Shown here: positions 5,418 through 38,503 of the stretch, piece after piece | Layout of the letters: every line of letters begins with the position of its first letter | How positions within the stretch are numbered: the stretch's first letter is position 1 | Assembly: GCA_965221125.1 (NCBI GenBank) | Contig: CBDCRW010000006.1 | Span: 416,001 to 480,000 of the forward strand | Direction of reading: 5' to 3' | Source: Alphaproteobacteria bacterium | GTDB taxonomy: Bacteria; Pseudomonadota; Alphaproteobacteria; UBA828 | DNA length: 64,000 nucleotides | Position numbers and translations under genes: made by a program | The notes under the pieces: model-generated | Databases searched by the model: none | Told to the model about the DNA's origin: nothing | The model's input: only the letters and a program-made list of their open reading frames with translations

Positions 5418-6619
5418 CCGCGGCGCAGGCGACGTTCGAGACGCAAGCGGGCGGCATGCTCGCCTACAACGTCATGCACTTCGTGCGGGGCCTGCGCGGC
5501 ACTGGCCTGCCGGCGGGGCCGGGCAAGACCATCGAGGCGGTGCGCGCGGTCGAGGCGGTCGATCCCACCCGGCGCAGCGACCTCTACTGGGCGCTCCACG
5601 CCGTGCTCGTGGAGCGGCGCGACCAGCACGACATCTTCGACCAGGCGTTTCACCTGTTCTGGCGCGAGATACGCATGCAGAGCGCGACCCACGGGCCGGT
5701 CATGGCGTCGGACAGGCTGCCGCAGCCGGAGGCGCCGCCGGCGAGCCGCCGGGCCAGCGAGGCCATCGCGCCCCGCCTGCCGGACGAGGAGGAGGAACAG
5801 GAAAACGTCGAGATCGAGCTCGACGCGGTGCTCACCTTCTCGCCCCAGGAAGTGCTGCAGGAGATGGATTTCGAGGACATGTCGGCGGACGAGCTGGCCG
5901 AGGCGAAGCGGGCGATCGCGGCGCTCCGGCTGCCGATCAAGCCGGTGCCGACGCGGCGCTTCCGGCCGGATCAGCTTGGGCGCAGGATCGACATGCGGGC
6001 GACGCTCCGCGCGAGTCTCCGCTCGAGCGGCGACCTCATGCCGCTCAAGCGCCGCTCCCGCGCCGAGCGCCTGCCGACGCTGGTGGTGCTCTGCGACGTG
6101 TCGGGCTCGATGAGCCGCTACTCGCGCATGTTCCTGCATTTCGTCCACGCCGTGACCAACGACCGCGACCGGGTGCACAGCTTCCTCTTCGGCACCCGGC
6201 TTACCAACATCACGCGCTATCTCCGGCACCGCGACGTGGACGTGGCCGTCGGCGCCGCGAGCAGCGCCGTCCACGACTGGTCCGGCGGCACGCGGATCGG
6301 CCCCTGCCTCAAGGACTTCAACCACCACTGGTCGCGCCGCGTGCTGGCCCAGGGCGCGCTGGTGCTGCTGATCACCGACGGGCTCGACCGCGACGATCTC
6401 GGCATCCTCCAGGCCGAGGTGGAGCGGCTGCACAAGTCCTGCCGCCGCCTGATCTGGCTCAACCCGCTACTCCGCTACGAGGGCTTCAGGCCCGAGGCCG
6501 GCGGCGTGCGCACCATCCTGCCGCATATCGACGACTTCCGGCCCGTCCACAACATCGCGAGCCTCATGGACATCGCGACCGCGCTGAGCGCGCCCGCGCC
6601 GGGCGAGGTGTGGGGTTAG
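5414..6619 (+). CDS. CoxE-type VWA-domain protein
   Basis: [33 protein letters not shown]; GTG start overlaps the AAA stop. Confidence 0.88.
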
Positions 6620-6840
6620 GAAACCCGCACCATGGTGCGGTGCACGGGGCAGGCAGGTGGGGGCAGGCTCTGCGGATGCAGCGCGAAGACCATCTGTTGT
6701 TTTCCGGTCTAGCCGGATAGAAGCACGGGTTTTTTTCTCACTTTGATTGGTTGGTGGATTTCCCGGGATGGTGGCCGAGTGCGGGAAGGACGCTGCCTGC
6801 GGCATTTTTTTGATCCTCAGCAGAATCCTCATTGCTGTTG

Positions 6841-6974
6841 AAGCTGTGGAGCGGTGGGCGCGAGATCGGCGAGTGTGGTCAGGCGGTGGGCAAGCGCCAG
6901 CTTGTCCACGGGCTGTCCACACGGTCCGCAGGACGCCGATCGGTCCGCAGGACGCGTCCACGGCTCCACAGCTT
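6841..6974. other. Long branched hairpin inside the transposon left end
   Basis: AAGCTGTGGAGC/GCTCCACAGCTT 12-bp stem with nested stems and two TCC-GCA-GGA mini-hairpins. Confidence 0.75.
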
Positions 6975-7063
6975 GGCGGCGGCGGGGAGCGTCCGTAATC
7001 TTGGCCTCTCACTGAACGACAAAGAGAGGCCCGGGGGACGGAACTCCCGCCGGGCCAGGGCCG

Positions 7064-7699
7064 GTGCAGCTTCGCTACGAAACGGGGCTCACCAGCGAGG
7101 AATACGTTAAGACCGAGGCGTGGCGCGACGCAAGGCTTGAGCGCTGCCCGAATCACCCGCACGGCGGATGTTCTGTGGCAAGCCACGGCACCTACGAGCG
7201 GAAGACCCCGCCCGGCGCAAGGGTTCCTCGCTGGTATTGCCGTGAGAGCCATACGACCATCGGCCTGCTGGCCGACTGTCTGGCGGCGCGGCTGCCGGGC
7301 ACGCTCGATGCGCTGGAAGCGGTTGTTGTCGTGGCGGAGGAGGCCGGCAGCCTGGAGGAGGCAGCGGACGAGGTGCGCTGCCCCGAGGACGAGGACGCCA
7401 TCGAGCTTCCCGGCGCCGTGCGTTGGATCCGCCGCAGGCTGAAGCTTGTGCACGACGCGCTTGTGCGCGTCATCGGCCTGATCCCCGACCTGCTCGCGGG
7501 CTGCGCGCCCACCATGAGCGCGGTGCGCGAGCGTCTGAAGAGCGACAGCGCGTTGATGGAACTGCGCGGCCTGGTCGCCGGGCAGCTCCGGACGCTACCC
7601 GCGCCTCTGGGCTTCCAACCCCACGGCATCGACGTGGGGAATCGCAAACCGCAGTTCCAACAACGGGCGGGGCCGGACCCGCCGCCGGAGAGTTCGTAG
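7064..7699 (+). CDS. Transposon-associated Cys/His-rich hypothetical protein (putative Zn-binding, possible HTH)
   Basis: CPNHPHGGC...HGTY...RWYC...H motif; GTG start; directly upstream of the transposase. Confidence 0.75.
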   Translation: MQLRYETGLTSEEYVKTEAWRDARLERCPNHPHGGCSVASHGTYERKTPPGARVPRWYCRESHTTIGLLADCLAARLPGTLDALEAVVVVAEEAGSLEEAADEVRCPEDEDAIELPGAVRWIRRRLKLVHDALVRVIGLIPDLLAGCAPTMSAVRERLKSDSALMELRGLVAGQLRTLPAPLGFQPHGIDVGNRKPQFQQRAGPDPPPESS

Positions 7700-7744
7700 C
7701 GTGACGATCCCGGGGCCAGGGAGTCCCTGAACGAGGATCGCACC

Positions 7745-9073
7745 ATGAACAGCTCAGACGACGACCTTCGCCAACAGATCGCGCTCTTCCGATACGACGT
7801 CATCGCCGATCTGGTGCATCTGCCCGTGGGTGCACCGGGTGCCGGCGCGATGATGCGCGCCAAAGCCGAGAAGACCTACACGATCCCCGGAACCACCAGG
7901 ACCCGGGTCGCCGCCGAGACCATGCGGCGCTGGATCAAGGACTACCGCTACGGCGGCTTCGACGCGCTCTACCCCAAGCCCCGCACCGACCGGGGGAAGC
8001 CCCGGCGGCTGCCGCCCGAGGTCGCCGAGCGCCTCATCGCGCTGAAGACCGAGAACGACGCATTGTCGGTTCGCGCCATCATCCAGAAGGTCAAGGAGGA
8101 GGGTATCGACCACCCGCTCGCCTCGTCCACCGTGCACCGCCTCTTCAGCCGCGAGGGCCTGTTCGACAAGAAGCCGCCCGACGGGGCGGATCGCCGCCGC
8201 TTCGCCTTCCGGCATGCCGGCGAGATGTGGATGAGCGACGTCATGCACGGACCCAAGGTCCGGCACGGCCGAACCCGGCGCAAGACCTACCTGATCGCCT
8301 TCATCGACGACGCCACCCGCGTCATCCCGTTCGCCGCCTTCGCCATGGCGGAGAACACTGCGGCGTTCCTGCCGGTGTTCAAGGACGCGCTGATCCGGCG
8401 CGGCCTCCCGGCCCGCTTGTACGTCGACAACGGAAGCGCCTACCGCTCCCGTCATCTCTCCCTGGTCTGCGCCAGGCTCGGCGTTGCGTTGATTCACGCA
8501 AGGGCGTTCCAGCCAGCGGGAAAGGGTAAGATCGAGCGCTTCTTCCGCACCCTCCGGGCCGGCTGGCTCCGCCACCTCGGCGATGACGTCGACAGCCTGG
8601 AGGCGCTCAACCGCAGCCTCTGGGCCTGGATCGAGGGGGAGTATCACAACAGCCCGCATCGTGGCCTCGACGAGGGGCGCACCCCGCTTGAGCAGTGGGC
8701 GCTGGCCTCGGCCGGCGTGCGCTATCCCGACGCCACCATGGACCTCGACGATCTGTTCCTCTTCGAGGCCAGGCGCCGTGTCTACAAGGACCGCACCGTT
8801 AGTCTGAACGGCCGCGTCTACGAGGTCGACGCCCTCCTGGTGGGTCAGAACGTCATCCTGCGCTACGACCCGGCCGCGCCGCCCTCGCGCCCTCTCGACG
8901 TGGTCCATGACGGCAAGCCGGCCGGCAAGGCCAGCCCTCTCGACGCCTACGCCAATACCGCCGTCAGGCGCACCTACCCGGCCAGGGAGATCGAGGCCGA
9001 AGATCCGGCGCCCGAGCCTCCGCCCTCGCCGCTGGCCATGCGCAACCTCAAGGACAAGAAGGAGGACGAGTGA
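7745..9073 (+). CDS. DDE transposase (rve/integrase core, Mu-transposase C-terminal type)
   Basis: N-terminal HTH; WMSD...FIDDATR...YVDNGSAY...GKIERFFRT catalytic D-D-E; C-terminal RRVYKDRTVSLNGRVYEV. Confidence 0.95.
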   Translation: MNSSDDDLRQQIALFRYDVIADLVHLPVGAPGAGAMMRAKAEKTYTIPGTTRTRVAAETMRRWIKDYRYGGFDALYPKPRTDRGKPRRLPPEVAERLIALKTENDALSVRAIIQKVKEEGIDHPLASSTVHRLFSREGLFDKKPPDGADRRRFAFRHAGEMWMSDVMHGPKVRHGRTRRKTYLIAFIDDATRVIPFAAFAMAENTAAFLPVFKDALIRRGLPARLYVDNGSAYRSRHLSLVCARLGVALIHARAFQPAGKGKIERFFRTLRAGWLRHLGDDVDSLEALNRSLWAWIEGEYHNSPHRGLDEGRTPLEQWALASAGVRYPDATMDLDDLFLFEARRRVYKDRTVSLNGRVYEVDALLVGQNVILRYDPAAPPSRPLDVVHDGKPAGKASPLDAYANTAVRRTYPAREIEAEDPAPEPPPSPLAMRNLKDKKEDE

Positions 9074-9873
9074 TGTACCTGCGCCACTTCGCCTTCACCC
9101 GCCTGCCCTTCGAGACCCCGGCAGAGACCGACGAGCTGTTCGAGTCCAACGCGCGCCGCGAGGCCGAGGCCAGGCTCGGCCACCTCATCGACCTGCGCGG
9201 CATCGGCCTGCTCACCGGCGAGGTGGGCTCCGGCAAGACCACCGTGTGCCGGCATCTGACCGCGCAGCTTCATCCAGGCCTCTACCGGGTCCACTACGTC
9301 TCGCTGACCACGGGCAACGTGCTCGACATGTACAAGGCGATCGCGTGGGAGATCGGCCTGCCCATCGAGCGCTCCCGCGCCTCGGCCTATCAGGCCATCC
9401 GAAACGAGATCTCCCGCCTCGTCACCGAGGCCAAGCAGCTGCCGGTCCTCGTCATCGACGAGGCCCATCATCTGCGCAACGACGTCCTTGAGGACCTGCG
9501 CCTGCTCACCAACTTCGCCATGGATGCAGAGCAGCGCCTGTGCCTCGTCCTCGTCGGTCTGACCGAGCTCAGGCGCCGCCTGGCCATGGCCATGCACGAA
9601 TCCCTCAGCCAGCGCCTCGTCGTCCGCCACCACCTGAGCGGTCTCGACCGCGACGAGGTCGACGCTTACATCAAGCACCGCCTCAGGCTCGCGGGATGCG
9701 AACTGCCGCTGTTCGAAGAGCCCGCCGTCGAGGCCCTGTTCCAGGGCGCGCGCGGCCTGCCGCGCCAGATCAACCGCATCGCCCACTACGCGCTCTCCGC
9801 CGCCGCTCTCGACGAGGCGAGGACCGTCAGTGCCGACCACCTGCAGCACGCGCTCGAGGAACTGCGGCCATGA
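9073..9873 (+). CDS. ExeA/TniB/TnsC-like AAA+ ATPase (transposition regulator)
   Basis: Walker A GEVGSGKT, Walker B VIDEAHHL, ESLSQRL, GLPRQIN; TGATG coupling to the transposase. Confidence 0.92.
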   Translation: MYLRHFAFTRLPFETPAETDELFESNARREAEARLGHLIDLRGIGLLTGEVGSGKTTVCRHLTAQLHPGLYRVHYVSLTTGNVLDMYKAIAWEIGLPIERSRASAYQAIRNEISRLVTEAKQLPVLVIDEAHHLRNDVLEDLRLLTNFAMDAEQRLCLVLVGLTELRRRLAMAMHESLSQRLVVRHHLSGLDRDEVDAYIKHRLRLAGCELPLFEEPAVEALFQGARGLPRQINRIAHYALSAAALDEARTVSADHLQHALEELRP

Positions 9874-10910
9874 CCGGCTTCCCGACCCGCGCCCCGATCG
9901 AGCTGGAGGAGCGGCCGCGCGAGCAGCAATGGCTGGTGGACACGCTATGGGGCGAGCAGGCCGTCGGCATCGTCGGCGGCGAGCCGAAGTGCGGCAAGTC
10001 CATCCTGGCGCTGGACCTCGCGGTCGCAGTCGCCGCCGGCGTCCCATGCCTGCGGCACTTCGCCCCGGCCCGGCCTGGCCCGGTCCTGCTGTTCGCCGCA
10101 GAAGACGCCGGCCACCTCGTGCGCAAGCGCCTGCAGGGGATCGCCCGCGCCGCAGGCGCCCGCTTCGAGACCCTCGACATCGCCGTCATCGACGTGCCCA
10201 CACTGCGCCTCGACCATCTCGACGACCGCCGCCGCCTGCAGCAGACCGTGGAGCGCATCGCACCGCGCCTCGTGGTCCTCGACCCCCTGGTCCGCCTGCA
10301 CGGCGTGGACGAGAACACGGTTGCGGACGTCGCCCCGATCCTCGGCTTCCTGCGCGACCTGCAACGCCGCTTCGAGACCGCCGTCCTCCTCGTCCACCAC
10401 GCCCGCAAGAGCGGGGCCACGAGGCCGGGGCAGGCCCTGCGGGGCAGCAGTGAGCTGCACGCCTGGGGGGACTCGAACCTCTACCTGCGCCGCCGGGACC
10501 GGCAGACCCTCATGACCGTCGAGCATCGCGCCGCACGCGGTCTCGACGACATCGAGATCGAGCTCAAGGAAGACGGAGAGGAGCCCTCCTTCCGGCTGCG
10601 CCAGCCGCCCACGGCCGGCGGCGGGGCGCCTCAGCCCGAAACACCCGAATGCCGCGTTCTCAAGGCGCTCGCCGACGCCGGGGCGCCGCTCTCGCAACGC
10701 CAGATCCGGGAACGCGCCGCGACCCGGCACAAGACCGTCGGCGTAATCTTGCAAAAGCTCGTCCAGGAGGGTCGCGTCGCGCGCAACGCCGAGGGCGGCT
10801 ACAGCGTCGTCGCAGGCGCAGCGGACAAGCGGGCGGCGGCCGCCGCCGCCAACGGCAGCAGTCGGCCGCAGGCCCCGCGGTTCCCGGAGCCCGGTTCCGC
10901 CAACGCCTAG
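9870..10910 (+). CDS. RecA-fold AAA_25/RepA-like ATPase (helicase-like) with C-terminal winged-HTH-like segment
   Basis: WLVDTLW, Walker A GEPKCGKS, FAAED, Walker B VVLDPL, LVHHARK, LRGSSELHAW; C-terminal LSQRQIRE...VILQKLVQEGRV; ATGA coupling. Confidence 0.85.
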   Translation: MTGFPTRAPIELEERPREQQWLVDTLWGEQAVGIVGGEPKCGKSILALDLAVAVAAGVPCLRHFAPARPGPVLLFAAEDAGHLVRKRLQGIARAAGARFETLDIAVIDVPTLRLDHLDDRRRLQQTVERIAPRLVVLDPLVRLHGVDENTVADVAPILGFLRDLQRRFETAVLLVHHARKSGATRPGQALRGSSELHAWGDSNLYLRRRDRQTLMTVEHRAARGLDDIEIELKEDGEEPSFRLRQPPTAGGGAPQPETPECRVLKALADAGAPLSQRQIRERAATRHKTVGVILQKLVQEGRVARNAEGGYSVVAGAADKRAAAAAANGSSRPQAPRFPEPGSANA

Positions 10911-11241
10911 GGGTTCGAGCCGGAACCGCCGTCGGGAACCACCCTTCCCCAACGGTCCGGAAGGCGCTGCGCCTCCACCGGGATACTACGTCAGGTGAGC
11001 GGCCAGTCCGTGGCCGGAAGCTTGCTTCAGGCCATGGCAGCACTTCGTCGTGTGGACGGTGGCGAGTCACCCGAAGGGCCGAAGCGAAGCGCAGGAGCGG
11101 CGCAGCCGCTTGACGCGCCGACGGCCGCGCGACACCTCGTCAGCTCTCCTCAAGCACCAGTCCAAACCTCAATCAGACAGCGACCCCGGACCGCCCGCAG
11201 AGACCATGAGCTCCTACGCTTCGATCCGGAAAAGACCGAGC

Positions 11242-11315
11242 AATCTGGGAAATCAGGGCAGCGATCACGTCAAATAATCTGGGAGATTCGGCGTCAAATA
11301 ACGTGCGAAACAACA
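11242..11315. repeat. Transposon right-end internal repeats (putative transposase binding sites)
   Basis: AATCTGGGA at 11242 and 11276; CGTCAAATAA at 11268 and 11292. Confidence 0.7.
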
Positions 11316-11410
11316 CCATCGCCCTTTCGGGGAAGTCGGGCCGGAGCGGCTCCGGGGGGCCGGCTCGCGGCCGGGCGCTCGGCCGGCGGGCTCCCGCCGC
11401 CGCCGGGACG

Positions 11411-11544
11411 GGCCAGCTTGGGCCACCATGAGCCGCCTTGGACCACTTTGGGCCACTTTGTGCCACTTTGTGCCACTTTGTGCCGCCCGTTTCGGACCAC
11501 TTTGGGCCACTTTGGACCGGCATAGACCGGAATAGGCCGGATTA
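11411..11544. repeat. 10-bp tandem repeat array (consensus KRCCACTTTG, degenerate at both ends)
   Basis: GACCACTTTG GGCCACTTTG TGCCACTTTG TGCCACTTTG...; about 13 units with one 4-nt phase shift. Confidence 0.9.
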
Positions 11545-11574
11545 AGGCCCTTCCGTGCAAAACGGCACCGCTCT

Positions 11575-15054: not shown

Positions 15055-15692
15055 CGCGCATCGTCGAGGCCCAGAATCGGGGCGCGCTGGCCCGCCTGCT
15101 GGCGGACGAGGTCGCGGCGCTGCTGGCGGCGGCGGTTCGGGAGACCGGCCGTGCCGCGCTGGCGGTGCCGGGCGGCACCACGCCGGCCGCGTTTCTCAGC
15201 GCGCTCGGCGGCCATGCGCTCGACTGGGCGGCCGTCGCGGTGACGCTCACCGACGAGCGCTGCGTCCCCGCCGGCCATCCGCGCTCCAACCGGCGCCTGC
15301 TGGACGAGACGCTGTTCGCCGGCCCCGCCCGCGCGGCGCGCTTCGTGGCACTCGACGACACAGAGGCGCTGTCCACGCTGCTGCCGCTCGACGCCTGCGT
15401 GCTGGGGATGGGGGAGGATTGCCACATCGCCTCGCTCTTCCCCGGCGCCGACGCGCTTTCGCCGGACTGCGCGGCGCCGTCCATGCGGCTCAGCGCCCCC
15501 GGCGCACCGGAGGAGCGCATCACGCTGACCGCGCCGGCGCTGACCGGGGCAGAACAATGCTTCGTGCTGATCCACGGCCAGGACAAGCGCGCGGCGCTGG
15601 AGCGGGCGGGGGCTGCGGCCGGCCCGGCTGAAGCCCCGGTGCGACTGGTCCTGGGCGGGCCGCGCCCCGGTACTGTTTACTGGGCGGCATAG
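15051..15692 (+). CDS. pgl: 6-phosphogluconolactonase
   Basis: PGGTTP, TDERCVP...SN, LGMGEDCHIASLFP, ERITLT; GTGA overlap with zwf. Confidence 0.9.
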   Translation: MTRIVEAQNRGALARLLADEVAALLAAAVRETGRAALAVPGGTTPAAFLSALGGHALDWAAVAVTLTDERCVPAGHPRSNRRLLDETLFAGPARAARFVALDDTEALSTLLPLDACVLGMGEDCHIASLFPGADALSPDCAAPSMRLSAPGAPEERITLTAPALTGAEQCFVLIHGQDKRAALERAGAAAGPAEAPVRLVLGGPRPGTVYWAA

Positions 15693-15838
15693 AGCGTATC
15701 CGTGTTACACGGATACGCTCTATGCCTCTATCGCTCACGGCAGCTGGCCTGCGGCCAGCGCCTGCGCGGGCGCGCCGCATTCGCGGCGGGCCGCTGTCGC
15801 GGCCTGTCGCGCGTCCGTACATGACGGACGCTCTCTGA
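15690..15838. repeat. Multi-hairpin intergenic repeat, copy 2
   Basis: TAGAGCGTATCCGTG-TTA-CACGGATACGCTCTA hairpin and TCGCTCACGGCAGC core. Confidence 0.85.
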
Positions 15839-37352: not shown

Positions 37353-38345
37353 ATGAAGCGGGTCTTTTCCGGCGTTCAGCCGACCGGCAATCTGCACCTC
37401 GGCAACTACCTCGGCGCGATCAAGAACTGGGTCGCGATGCAGAGGGAGTACGACTGCATCTACTGCATCGTCGATCTGCACGCGATCACGGTGCCGCAGG
37501 ACCCTGCCGAGCTGACCGCGAACACGCGCGAGGTCACGGCCGGGCTGCTGGCTGCCGGGCTCGATCCGAAGAGGTGCATCATCTTCAACCAGAGCAGCGT
37601 CGGGGGCCACGCGGAGCTCGCCTGGATGCTCAACTGCTTCACCCCGCTCGGCTGGCTCAACCGGATGACCCAGTTCAAGGAGAAGGCGGGGAAGAAGCGG
37701 GAGAACGCGCTGCTCGGGCTCTACGCCTACCCGGTGCTGATGGCCGCCGACATCCTGCTCTACCACGCGACCGCGGTGCCGGTGGGCGAGGACCAAAAGC
37801 AGCATCTGGAACTTTCCCGCGATATCGCCGGCGCCTTCAACCGCGCCTATGACGTAGAATTCTTCCCGCTGCCGGAGCCGATGATCTTCGGCGCCGCCAC
37901 CCGGGTGATGAGCCTGCGCGACGGGCGCAGCAAGATGAGCAAGTCGGACGGCTCCGACTACGCGCGCATCAATCTCACCGACGACGCGGACACGCTCGCG
38001 CTCAAGATCAAGCGGGCCAAGACCGATTCCGAGCCGGGCCTCTCCTTCGATCCCGAGCGGAGGCCGGAGGCGGCGAACCTGCTGAGCATCTACGCGGCGC
38101 TCGCGGGCGAGCCGGTGGAGCGGGTCGTCGCCGAGCACACGGGCATGGGCTTCGCCGACTTCAAGGGCAAGCTCGCCGACCTCGCGATCGAGACCCTCGG
38201 CCCCATCGCCCGGCGCATGCGCGAGCTGCAGGCGGACCCCGGCTATATCGACGGGGTGCTGGCCGACGGCGCGGCGCGCGCGCACGCCATCGCCGACGCC
38301 AACCTCGCCCAAGTGCGGCGCATCATGGGGCTGCTCGAGGCCTGA
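37353..38345 (+). CDS. trpS: Tryptophan-tRNA ligase
   Basis: [29 protein letters not shown]. Confidence 0.96.
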
Positions 38346-38503
38346 GCGTTTCCGTCCGAGACGGAAACGCTCTGATTCTTTGTCGCTCACGGCAGCTGGC
38401 CGTCCTGCGATTCCGCGCGCCTGCCGGCGCGACGGCCTGCTGCCTGCGCGGGCGGGCCGCTGTCGCGGCCTGTCGCGCGTCCGTCCGAGACGGACGCGCT
38501 CAG
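38342..38503. repeat. Multi-hairpin intergenic repeat, copy 3
   Basis: CTGAGCG...CGCTCAG termini, two TCCGTC-CGA-GACGGA hairpins, TCGCTCACGGCAGC core. Confidence 0.85.

Follow-up and report, generated by a model that had tools for sequence, protein, structure and literature searches.

A branched, strand-specific hairpin near the left end of a DDE transposon belongs to a structured family shared with pBBR1-type plasmids

We analysed a 134-nt branched hairpin at positions 6841-6974 (+ strand) of a 64,000-nt stretch of an Alphaproteobacteria bacterium genome (assembly GCA_965221125.1, contig CBDCRW010000006.1, positions 416,001 to 480,000; hereafter the window), where it lies near the left end of a DDE transposon spanning 6695-11315 (Table 1). 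The hairpin is a member of a genuine structured, strand-specific family that is shared with pBBR1-type plasmids. Homology, the motif content of the arms and the geometry at insertion sequence (IS) ends make a single-strand initiation (ssi) signal, or helicase-loading signal, on the strand displaced in replicative transposition the best supported reading of the hairpin, one to which we give an even chance. The narrower proposal that it is an ssi of the DnaA-box-hairpin subtype is tentative. A preliminary description of the same DNA, made from its letters, had offered a priming signal, a single-stranded DNA (ssDNA) promoter and a structured RNA leader or noncoding RNA as possible functions; the first of these drew partial support from plasmid-rep hairpin homology, DnaA-box-like motifs, GNA mini-hairpins and the strand geometry in three ISs, tempered by the finding that the module is dispensable in close relatives.

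A stable fold on one strand

Every nested pairing that the preliminary description had listed for 6841-6974 was recovered when the structure was verified base by base, as were its twin TCC-GCA-GGA mini-hairpins, which read TCCGCAGGA at both sites and sit on the 3' arm only. The minimum free energy (MFE) structure predicted for DNA was the branched structure (-56.6 kcal/mol, z -10.7), and that predicted for RNA reproduced it (-97.4 kcal/mol, z -10.1); in each case 0/200 shuffles were as good. The complementary strand folded clearly worse both as DNA (-45.4 kcal/mol) and as RNA (-78.5 kcal/mol), in line with the strand specificity claimed earlier. By prediction, then, the element forms a stable hairpin on one DNA strand, a property of an A-site-type ssi. 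Its start lies 146 nt inside the left terminus of the transposon, which bears out the original placement in a transposon left end.

Homologues in plasmids and other mobile elements

A blastn search with window positions 6790-7064 against 72,556 plasmid records matched five of them. The whole hairpin was matched in a Legionella antarctica plasmid (71.5% over 134 nt, E 2e-8), and the apical module was matched at 87-90% in a 6.5-kb Acetobacter RepL plasmid and in 2.8-3.0-kb Klebsiella and E. coli plasmids. When the search was repeated with the E. coli plasmid hairpin, 20 records were found, including pBBR1, small plasmids of Citrobacter, Novacetimonas and Komagataeibacter, Proteus OXA-58 plasmids, 35-41-kb KPC plasmids and a Paraburkholderia megaplasmid. 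There were no ColE1-type plasmids among the blastn plasmid matches, and a phage collection yielded no match at blastn sensitivity. We found no published description of the pBBR1 hairpin in a search that left the older literature, including the original pBBR1 paper, outside its range.

Every homologue inspected, when MFE-folded separately, had the same plan: the basal stem is long, the main arm ends in an apical hairpin, and the 3' side carries one or two side mini-hairpins. Overall lengths across the family are 125-170 nt. The matching strand folded far better than its complement (for example, -104 versus -69 and -122 versus -95 kcal/mol), and E(+) was lower than E(-) in 11/11 plasmid or mobile-element hairpins folded, in three further ones and in the window. 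Conserved sequence blocks in a 13-sequence alignment (A2) were shared with members outside the transposon, and RNAalifold identified 37 shared pairs in it, 16 of which had changed on both sides, with 96.8% of cells paired. Column shuffles reached four of five measures in 0/500 cases and the fifth, further pair types, in 3/500, and sliding the partners by 1-3 columns lowered pairing to 34-41%. Several pairs were kept as G·T at fixed columns, and compensatory differences extended to the spacers between motifs, as in GATCGGCG/CGCCGATC in the window versus AGCCATCG/CGATGGCT in the Legionella plasmid. The covariation that the preliminary description had named as a check was found in this family.

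A covariance model built from the alignment (R1) extended the family to a site beside the 3' end of an IS3-type gene (L031) and to two of 150 other genomes sampled across the phylum, one hairpin lying in a type IV secretion system-like region (G439) and the other inside a 1.55-kb IS whose bounds are set by its inverted repeats (G427). Under strict filters, R1 matched 0/150 other genomes of the class, and a DNA search of 400 other class genomes returned one short variant only (G155); both are samples and not proof of absence.

Genomic contexts of the homologues varied widely. In five types of plasmid the hairpin is found on the strand opposite rep, 300-620 bp upstream of that gene, and these rep genes are mutually unrelated (HTH_36-type, RepL and others). 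In the Legionella antarctica plasmid (L114:4005-4138) it lies just upstream of an integrase and IS91-family transposase pair, in a Paraburkholderia sabiae plasmid (L121:2945-3070) it lies 130 nt upstream of three consecutive tyrosine recombinases, another family hairpin is 196 nt upstream of mobV, and that of pKPC2_CF65 is downstream of a gene row. Sites next to rve-type ISs are also among the contexts. The Legionella and Paraburkholderia settings suggest that the cassette is common to non-DDE mobile elements too. Because the hosting replicons have no protein in common and come from alpha-, beta- and gammaproteobacteria, the reader of the hairpin must be a conserved host factor common to Proteobacteria.

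DnaA-box-like motifs and mini-hairpin loops

Along the 3' arm, T(G/A)TCCA(C/T) motifs recur in an array whose spacing is roughly helical. The DnaA-box consensus is TTATCCACA, and at a threshold of 6/9 the window copy contains three box-like 9-mers (Table 1), versus a shuffle mean of 0.34, with 4/2000 shuffles reaching three. At the position of 6962-6970, plasmid members carry ATATCCACA or TTATCCATA. Across the family, all 16 hairpins had at least one + strand 9-mer matching the consensus at 7/9 or better, and 13 of the 16 had two to four, compared with 0.01-0.17 in shuffles; 8/9 matches occur in the E. coli, Legionella, pKPC2_CF65 and G439 hairpins and 9/9 matches in G427 and in an IS256-family element of the source genome. 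A conserved wobble at box position 4 pairs T of the 3' arm with G of the 5' arm, so that on the complementary strand the box becomes the poorer TTACCCACA.

Most loops of the side hairpins are GCA, GAA or GTA with a closing C-G pair, and GCGAAGC is found in some plasmids; the exceptions are pKPC2_CF65 and the Proteus plasmid, whose side hairpins have other loops. According to PMC13037366, extraordinarily stable DNA mini-hairpins are formed by GNA loops only, and such mini-hairpins occur in the complementary-strand origin of phage G4, in RSF1010 ssiA and in the ssDNA promoters of phage N4.

Placement at IS ends

The source genome (4.58 Mb, 7 contigs) holds 20 near-identical copies of the transposon, of which 19 have intact left ends and one is split inside the hairpin by another IS, with an 8-bp duplication, CTCGCCGA, that corresponds to window 6866-6873. 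The inserted IS is a 1,453-bp IS256-family element (G000:C6:194952-196404, equivalent to L144:1609-3061) with 14 identical copies in the genome, and it carries its own hairpin on the sense strand, 47-118 nt from its left tip (L144, about 1655-1726). This second hairpin has a 24-bp stem with a perfect TTATCCACA in the 3' arm, its sole wobble is a G·T at box position 4, and it shares the base motif CTGTGGGTA...TTATCCACAG with the plasmid family. The IS256-family element was also seen near the right end of two other transposon copies.

In 3/3 hairpins confirmed to lie inside an IS (those of the window element, the IS256-family element and the G427 IS), the hairpin forms on the strand that starts, 5', at the closest IS terminus, and it lies 47-146 nt inward. 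The arrangement is independent of transposase direction, as the G427 hairpin lies downstream of and antisense to its transposase gene. Such geometry fits an end-related, strand-specific DNA function, and agrees poorly with an mRNA leader.

An optional, conserved module

A search for relatives of the transposase gave 447 stretches of species-representative genomes, from which 79 loci were retained; metagenome contigs supplied 14 more. The distance from the left tip to the first gene, orf211, ranged from 185 to 370 nt among them. The full hairpin is present in L009, L011 and L089. In L100 and L101 the same leader contains a hairpin 66 nt shorter, with a compensatory basal-stem change (G-C versus T-A in the window); the short variant in G155 consists only of a stem capped by one CGGTCCGCAGGACG mini-hairpin, the corresponding basal pair being G·T; and L013, L026 and L027 have other sub-modules. 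Compared with L011, identity is 100% over about 150 nt that take in the hairpin and its immediate flanks, versus about 85% in the rest of the element and 68-80% at the tip. The module is dispensable, but in elements that have it no other stretch is as well conserved.

Two other roles were considered and rejected. A partner site for the AAA_25 (RepA/RecA-like) protein encoded by the element does not match the distribution of the two, because L011 carries the identical hairpin and no such gene, and the reverse holds for L010, L020 and L022. A free-standing miniature inverted-repeat transposable element or repetitive extragenic palindromic (REP) sequence of the host genome is contradicted by the absence of any copy of the hairpin or of the mini-hairpin motif outside the 20 elements. 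No mirror-image hairpin was found at the right end of the element. In distant, A/T-richer relatives (L054:2550-2830 and upstream of L078 and L085), the same left-end leader contains a hairpin plus T-run followed by a second, perfect hairpin; these leader hairpins have no sequence similarity to that of the window.

A model for hairpin function

We infer that the family acts as ssi, with DnaA as the reader. In the transposon, Mu-like DDE strand transfer would join the - strand of the element, by its 3' end at the left tip, to target DNA, and the free target 3'-OH would prime synthesis into the element, so that the - strand would be copied and the + strand displaced as the lagging-strand template of a fork entering from the left end. 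Once about 280 nt had been exposed the hairpin could fold, its GNA mini-hairpins keeping the fold stable and free of SSB, the protein that binds ssDNA. A host initiator would then bind the folded stem and load DnaB on the + strand, DnaB would move 5'->3' into the element, and primase would start lagging-strand (complementary-strand) synthesis. Because of the box-like motifs we favour DnaA as this initiator, which would bind the T(G/A)TCCAC motifs in the folded stem; primase alone or PriA would be alternatives. In plasmids, the same cassette might be used to initiate the lagging strand near the origin or, after transfer, to make the complementary strand. Related observations come from earlier reports: in the ABC primosome, DnaA on a DnaA-box hairpin in ssDNA loads DnaB and priming follows (PMC6127211); Mu transposition requires the host primosome at the strand-transfer fork, recruited through PriA (PMC5778457); and small enterobacterial plasmids carry a non-essential ssi-like palindrome, loss of which leads to higher copy number and multimers (PMC6854812; bioRxiv 10.1101/2022.12.05.519187).

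Several observations weigh against an ssi role. The boxes of the window copy are degenerate, matching TTATCCACA at only 6-7/9 positions. A weak point is the mode of transposition, since replicative transposition of 6695-11315 is itself inferred and no resolvase gene was found among the proteins that the element encodes. R1 scored the window hairpin at 114.4 bits on the + strand and 49.8 bits on the - strand, scores that are no independent evidence because the window sequence is in the training set of the model. Compensatory changes in palindromes can arise by template-switch mutation without selection. The hairpin adjoins a conserved promoter-like motif, which makes a regulatory role of the duplex possible, and metatranscriptome contigs cover it, so that transcription through 6841-6974 is also possible. 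Dispensability itself counts here: L020, L022/L023/L068 (transposase identity 78-82% for these), L010, L090-L092 and L094-L096 are without the segment corresponding to window 6804-6972, with the flanks of the module joined directly in L020 and L022/L023/L068 (alignment A1 and blastn), and L022-type elements that have no hairpin remain multi-copy.

A broader proposal, which we regard as conceivable and advance with reserve, is that unrelated mobile elements share a portable, strand-specific DnaA-box hairpin, each folding it on the strand that is exposed during its own replication or transposition. The sharers would be the two high-copy DDE ISs of this genome, an IS of another phylum member, the IS91-type element, the recombinase-trio element, and the pBBR1 family with other small plasmids. 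An ssi hairpin is known as a kind; what is new is a family shared by pBBR1-type plasmids and several mobile-element classes, now defined by an alignment and a covariance model, and the placement of its hairpins at the ends of DDE insertion sequences. We found no published report of an IS-borne primosome site in a search that did not extend to the older literature. Replicative or copy-out transposons need the host replisome at their ends, which Mu obtains by PriA-dependent restart. If the ssi reading is correct, a transposon-borne cis hairpin for helicase loading or priming would be a portable alternative, giving the element its own fork start at its end, and might help to explain bursts such as the 20 and 14 identical copies of the two ISs. 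The same cassette is present in pBBR1, a very widely used broad-host-range vector replicon, in small plasmids and in KPC and OXA-58 plasmids, and what it does there could be relevant to the copy number, the stability and the transfer of such replicons.

Alternative readings

The alternative that fares best, and which we consider unlikely, is a duplex DnaA-binding array upstream of the promoter-like motif, through which DnaA, or some other host protein, would tie the expression of the transposase or the assembly of the transpososome to replication state; the plasmid counterpart of the array would be the origin's DnaA-box cluster. It would accommodate the presence of box-like motifs on both strands at roughly helical spacing, the 0-2 nt that separate the end of the hairpin from the conserved TTGnnn-N17-TAGTCT motif, and the proximity of the hairpin to rep genes in plasmids. 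However, a duplex array gives no reason for compensatory changes in the inter-box spacers, such as those that distinguish the window from the Legionella plasmid, or for the conservation of G·T wobbles that weaken the boxes on one arm, and the one-sided GNA mini-hairpins are unaccounted for. Hairpin-less relatives, moreover, retain the promoter-like motif with no array.

Decidedly unlikely, in our estimate, is an RNA element acting in read-through or end-derived transcripts, either as an insulator, attenuator or RNase III target that uncouples the transposase operon or as a stabilizing 5' leader. In its favour, the fold predicted for RNA is highly stable and stronger for the sense strand than for its complement, and the hairpin comes after a T7 run (6805-6811). 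Sites that combine a hairpin with a T-run occur in the same leader of some distant relatives, three contexts (the window, L121 and L122) place the hairpin upstream of a gene and in sense orientation, and it is covered by RNA-library contigs. Against this, the hairpin elsewhere lies downstream of or antisense to the nearest gene, and is on the strand opposite rep in five plasmid types, so that the RNA-leader option of the preliminary description fits poorly there; the motifs that are conserved are of the DNA-protein kind, and it is in DNA that GNA triloops are special (PMC13037366). A Rfam 15 search of 5500-8500 gave two chance-level matches only (E 0.58 and 0.82, far below gathering scores), and an intrinsic terminator scan of 6600-7800 found no site, the sequence after the hairpin being GGCGGCGG. 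A crude terminator scan of the leaders of 32 relatives, which called a + strand site in nine and a - strand site in two, was not used because several calls were the T-rich terminus and the L054 site was missed.

The covering contigs themselves cannot show strand, ends or transcription. They come from four metatranscriptome runs (X15-X18, sponge and coral samples) available as Logan contigs only, in which uncovered stretches are no evidence, and they contain the element, variants of it and the empty target site. Variants include a paired C/G insertion after 6893 and 6901 and an A>C change at 6970. Two X15 contigs start at 6972, possibly at an assembly break, and in a coral sample, contigs from RNA libraries connect 6688 with 11315, the empty-site form.

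We place little credence in the proposal that the hairpin has no function and is a selfish or mutational quasi-palindrome cassette, spread by recombination and with arms kept complementary by template switching. Its presence or absence among close relatives, its modular nested architecture (the sub-modules of L100, G155 and L013) and the right end without a counterpart would be expected of such a cassette. The conservation peak relative to L011 argues against it, as do sequence blocks, wobble positions and a side-hairpin layout kept across alpha-, beta- and gammaproteobacterial replicons, the consistent geometry relative to IS ends and the lack of free copies outside the element in its own genome.

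Equally improbable is an Frpo- or N4-like ssDNA promoter, in which the folded + strand would give RNA polymerase a promoter for a primer RNA or early transcript: the hairpin is long, imperfect and strand-specific with mini-hairpins, N4 virion RNA polymerase promoters are DNA hairpins with a 5-bp stem and 3-nt loop (PMC13037366), and + strand-templated transcription in plasmids would head towards rep, but a promoter consensus scan of 6600-7800 found no -35/-10-like hexamer pair on either strand (nor did it call the 6973-7001 motif), the stems are G+C-rich with no TATAAT-like segment, and the window transcript would run outward across the left end. The sigma-70-like hexamers that this option of the preliminary description would call for were thus not found.

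Relation to known systems

As an ssi, the family would most resemble the A-site of the ABC primosome (Masai & Arai 1995, as cited in PMC6127211). The two are alike as strand-specific, plasmid-associated ssDNA hairpins (predicted ones in the family), with DnaA-box sequence in the duplex stem of the A-site and box-like sequence in that of the family, and by analogy the expected outcome would be alike, namely DnaB loading and priming on SSB-coated DNA. The A-site, however, is a simple hairpin with a single consensus box, whereas the family described here is 125-170 nt and branched, with two to four box-like motifs, conserved G·T wobbles and GNA side hairpins, and its window copy has only 6-7/9 box matches. 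The primase-dependent G4-type ssi and the RSF1010 ssiA and ssiB, whose extraordinarily stable GNA or GNNA mini-hairpins stand near the priming site (PMC13037366), share with the family a multi-stem ssDNA structure with such mini-hairpins and an occurrence in plasmids, often as non-essential accessory origin elements. The RSF1010 ssi differs in being 40 nt long and read by a plasmid primase, whereas the window element encodes no primase. The ssi-like palindrome of the small enterobacterial plasmids pHW126, pIGRK and pIGMS31, which lies upstream of the iterons and rep, is similarly accessory and non-essential (PMC6854812; bioRxiv 10.1101/2022.12.05.519187); the repeats number two, of 25 bp each, in pBBR1-type plasmids, whereas pHW126-type plasmids have four 20-bp iterons.

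The logic proposed for the transposon would be that of the phiX174-type primosome assembly site (pas) of ColE1/pBR322, in which DnaB loading relies on a hairpin that lies a few hundred nucleotides from the start, on the displaced template of the lagging strand. The outside end of IS50/Tn5 carries a DnaA box that couples the element to cell replication state, and is comparable in placing a host DnaA recognition sequence at a transposon end; it is one duplex box inside the terminal repeat, whereas the window has a folded, covarying hairpin internal to the end. In Mu, PriA recognises the fork itself rather than a transposon-borne site, whereas here the hairpin is carried by the transposon.

The host transposon and its surroundings

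The element combines an rve catalytic core with a Mu-type C-terminal domain and an AAA+ partner, has TG...CA at its termini and is flanked by a short target duplication, the features of a Mu/Tn552/IS481-like DDE transposon. Within its terminal 90 nt or so, the repeat GATTTCCC(G/A)G(G/A)AT occurs at equal distance from both tips, and the inner repeat of the left end recurs equally far from the right terminus; these terminal repeats are presumed to be transposase binding sites. The left-end stretch 6695-6790 is kept in relatives with and without the hairpin, which is internal to the repeats and ends 90 nt before the first gene. The motif at 6973-7001 would probably be the promoter of orf211, and relatives have TTGnnn-N16-18-TAGTCT in its place whether the hairpin is present or absent. 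A separate, family-wide hairpin at 7028-7056 shows compensatory inner-stem changes among relatives (for example, L020, L022 and L026) and may control translation or antisense transcription; on the - strand, a T-rich run comes after it.

Table 1. Features of the hairpin, its optional module and the host transposon (window positions).
Feature	Position	Strand	Details
Host DDE transposon/IS	6695-11315	+	4,621 bp; termini TGTTGTTT...AAACAACA; 5-bp target duplication CCATC (6690-6694, 11316-11320)
Left end proper	6695-6790	+	Terminal TGTTGTTT and inner repeat GATTTCCCGGGAT (about nt 62-84)
Optional module	6804-6972	+	Indel versus hairpin-less relatives (alignment A1 and blastn); T7 run 6805-6811, A/T-richer leader, hairpin
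Basal stem	6841-6852/6963-6974	+	12 Watson-Crick pairs, perfect
Second stem	6854-6862/6953-6961	+	9 bp: 8 Watson-Crick and 1 G·T
Third stem	6864-6871/6934-6941	+	GATCGGCG/CGCCGATC; 8 Watson-Crick pairs, perfect
Apical module	6873-6922	+	Two short helices and the GCCA-looped hairpin; 87-90% match to small-plasmid hairpins, highest of any part
Fourth stem	6873-6878/6917-6922	+	6 Watson-Crick pairs
Apical stem	6886-6895/6900-6909	+	10 bp: 9 Watson-Crick and 1 G·T; GCCA loop
DnaA-box-like 9-mer TTGTCCACG	6902	+	7/9 match to TTATCCACA; 3' arm (pair spans 6902-6921)
DnaA-box-like 9-mer CTGTCCACA	6913	+	7/9 match to TTATCCACA; 3' arm (pair spans 6902-6921)
Side mini-hairpin 1, TCC-GCA-GGA	6925-6933	+	GNA-type triloop; TCCGCAGGA
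Side mini-hairpin 2, TCC-GCA-GGA	6944-6952	+	Identical, TCCGCAGGA
Degenerate DnaA-box-like 9-mer GGCTCCACA	6962-6970	+	6/9 match; base of 3' arm
Promoter-like motif (putative)	6973-7001	+	TTGGCG (6973-6978), 17-nt spacer, TAATCT (6996-7001)
Second, small hairpin	7003-7031	+	GGCCTCTC...GAGAGGCC; clade-specific
Family-wide hairpin before orf211	7028-7056	+	GGCCCGG...CCGGGCC; ends 8 nt before GTG start
orf211	7064-7699	+	First gene; GTG start; unmatched in Pfam and NCBIfam; conservation across 59 related loci
DDE transposase	7745-9073	+	HTH_32, rve, Mu-transpos_C; nearest NCBIfam IS481, 201.9 bits (cut-off 224)
AAA_22/TniB-like ATPase	9070-9873	+	Pfam AAA_22
AAA_25 (RepA/RecA-like) ATPase	9870-10910	+	C-terminal MarR-type winged helix-turn-helix; clade-specific cargo

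The N-terminal stretch of the orf211 product is Cys/His-rich and resembles a zinc ribbon, and the fourth gene, encoding the AAA_25 protein, is limited to one clade of the IS family (the window, L009, L010, L012, L020, L022 and L051). The transposon is inserted in a member of another genomic repeat family (window 6623-6694 and 11316-11574), of which an uninterrupted copy lies at G000:C4:248500-248771; this host repeat includes six tandem 10-bp units, CCACTTTGKG, at 11413-11514 and has several other partial copies. Elsewhere in the window, a three-copy REP-like repeat of about 150 nt (1649-1801, 15684-15836 and 38336-38501) has two short G+C-rich hairpins in each copy and lies next to gene ends.

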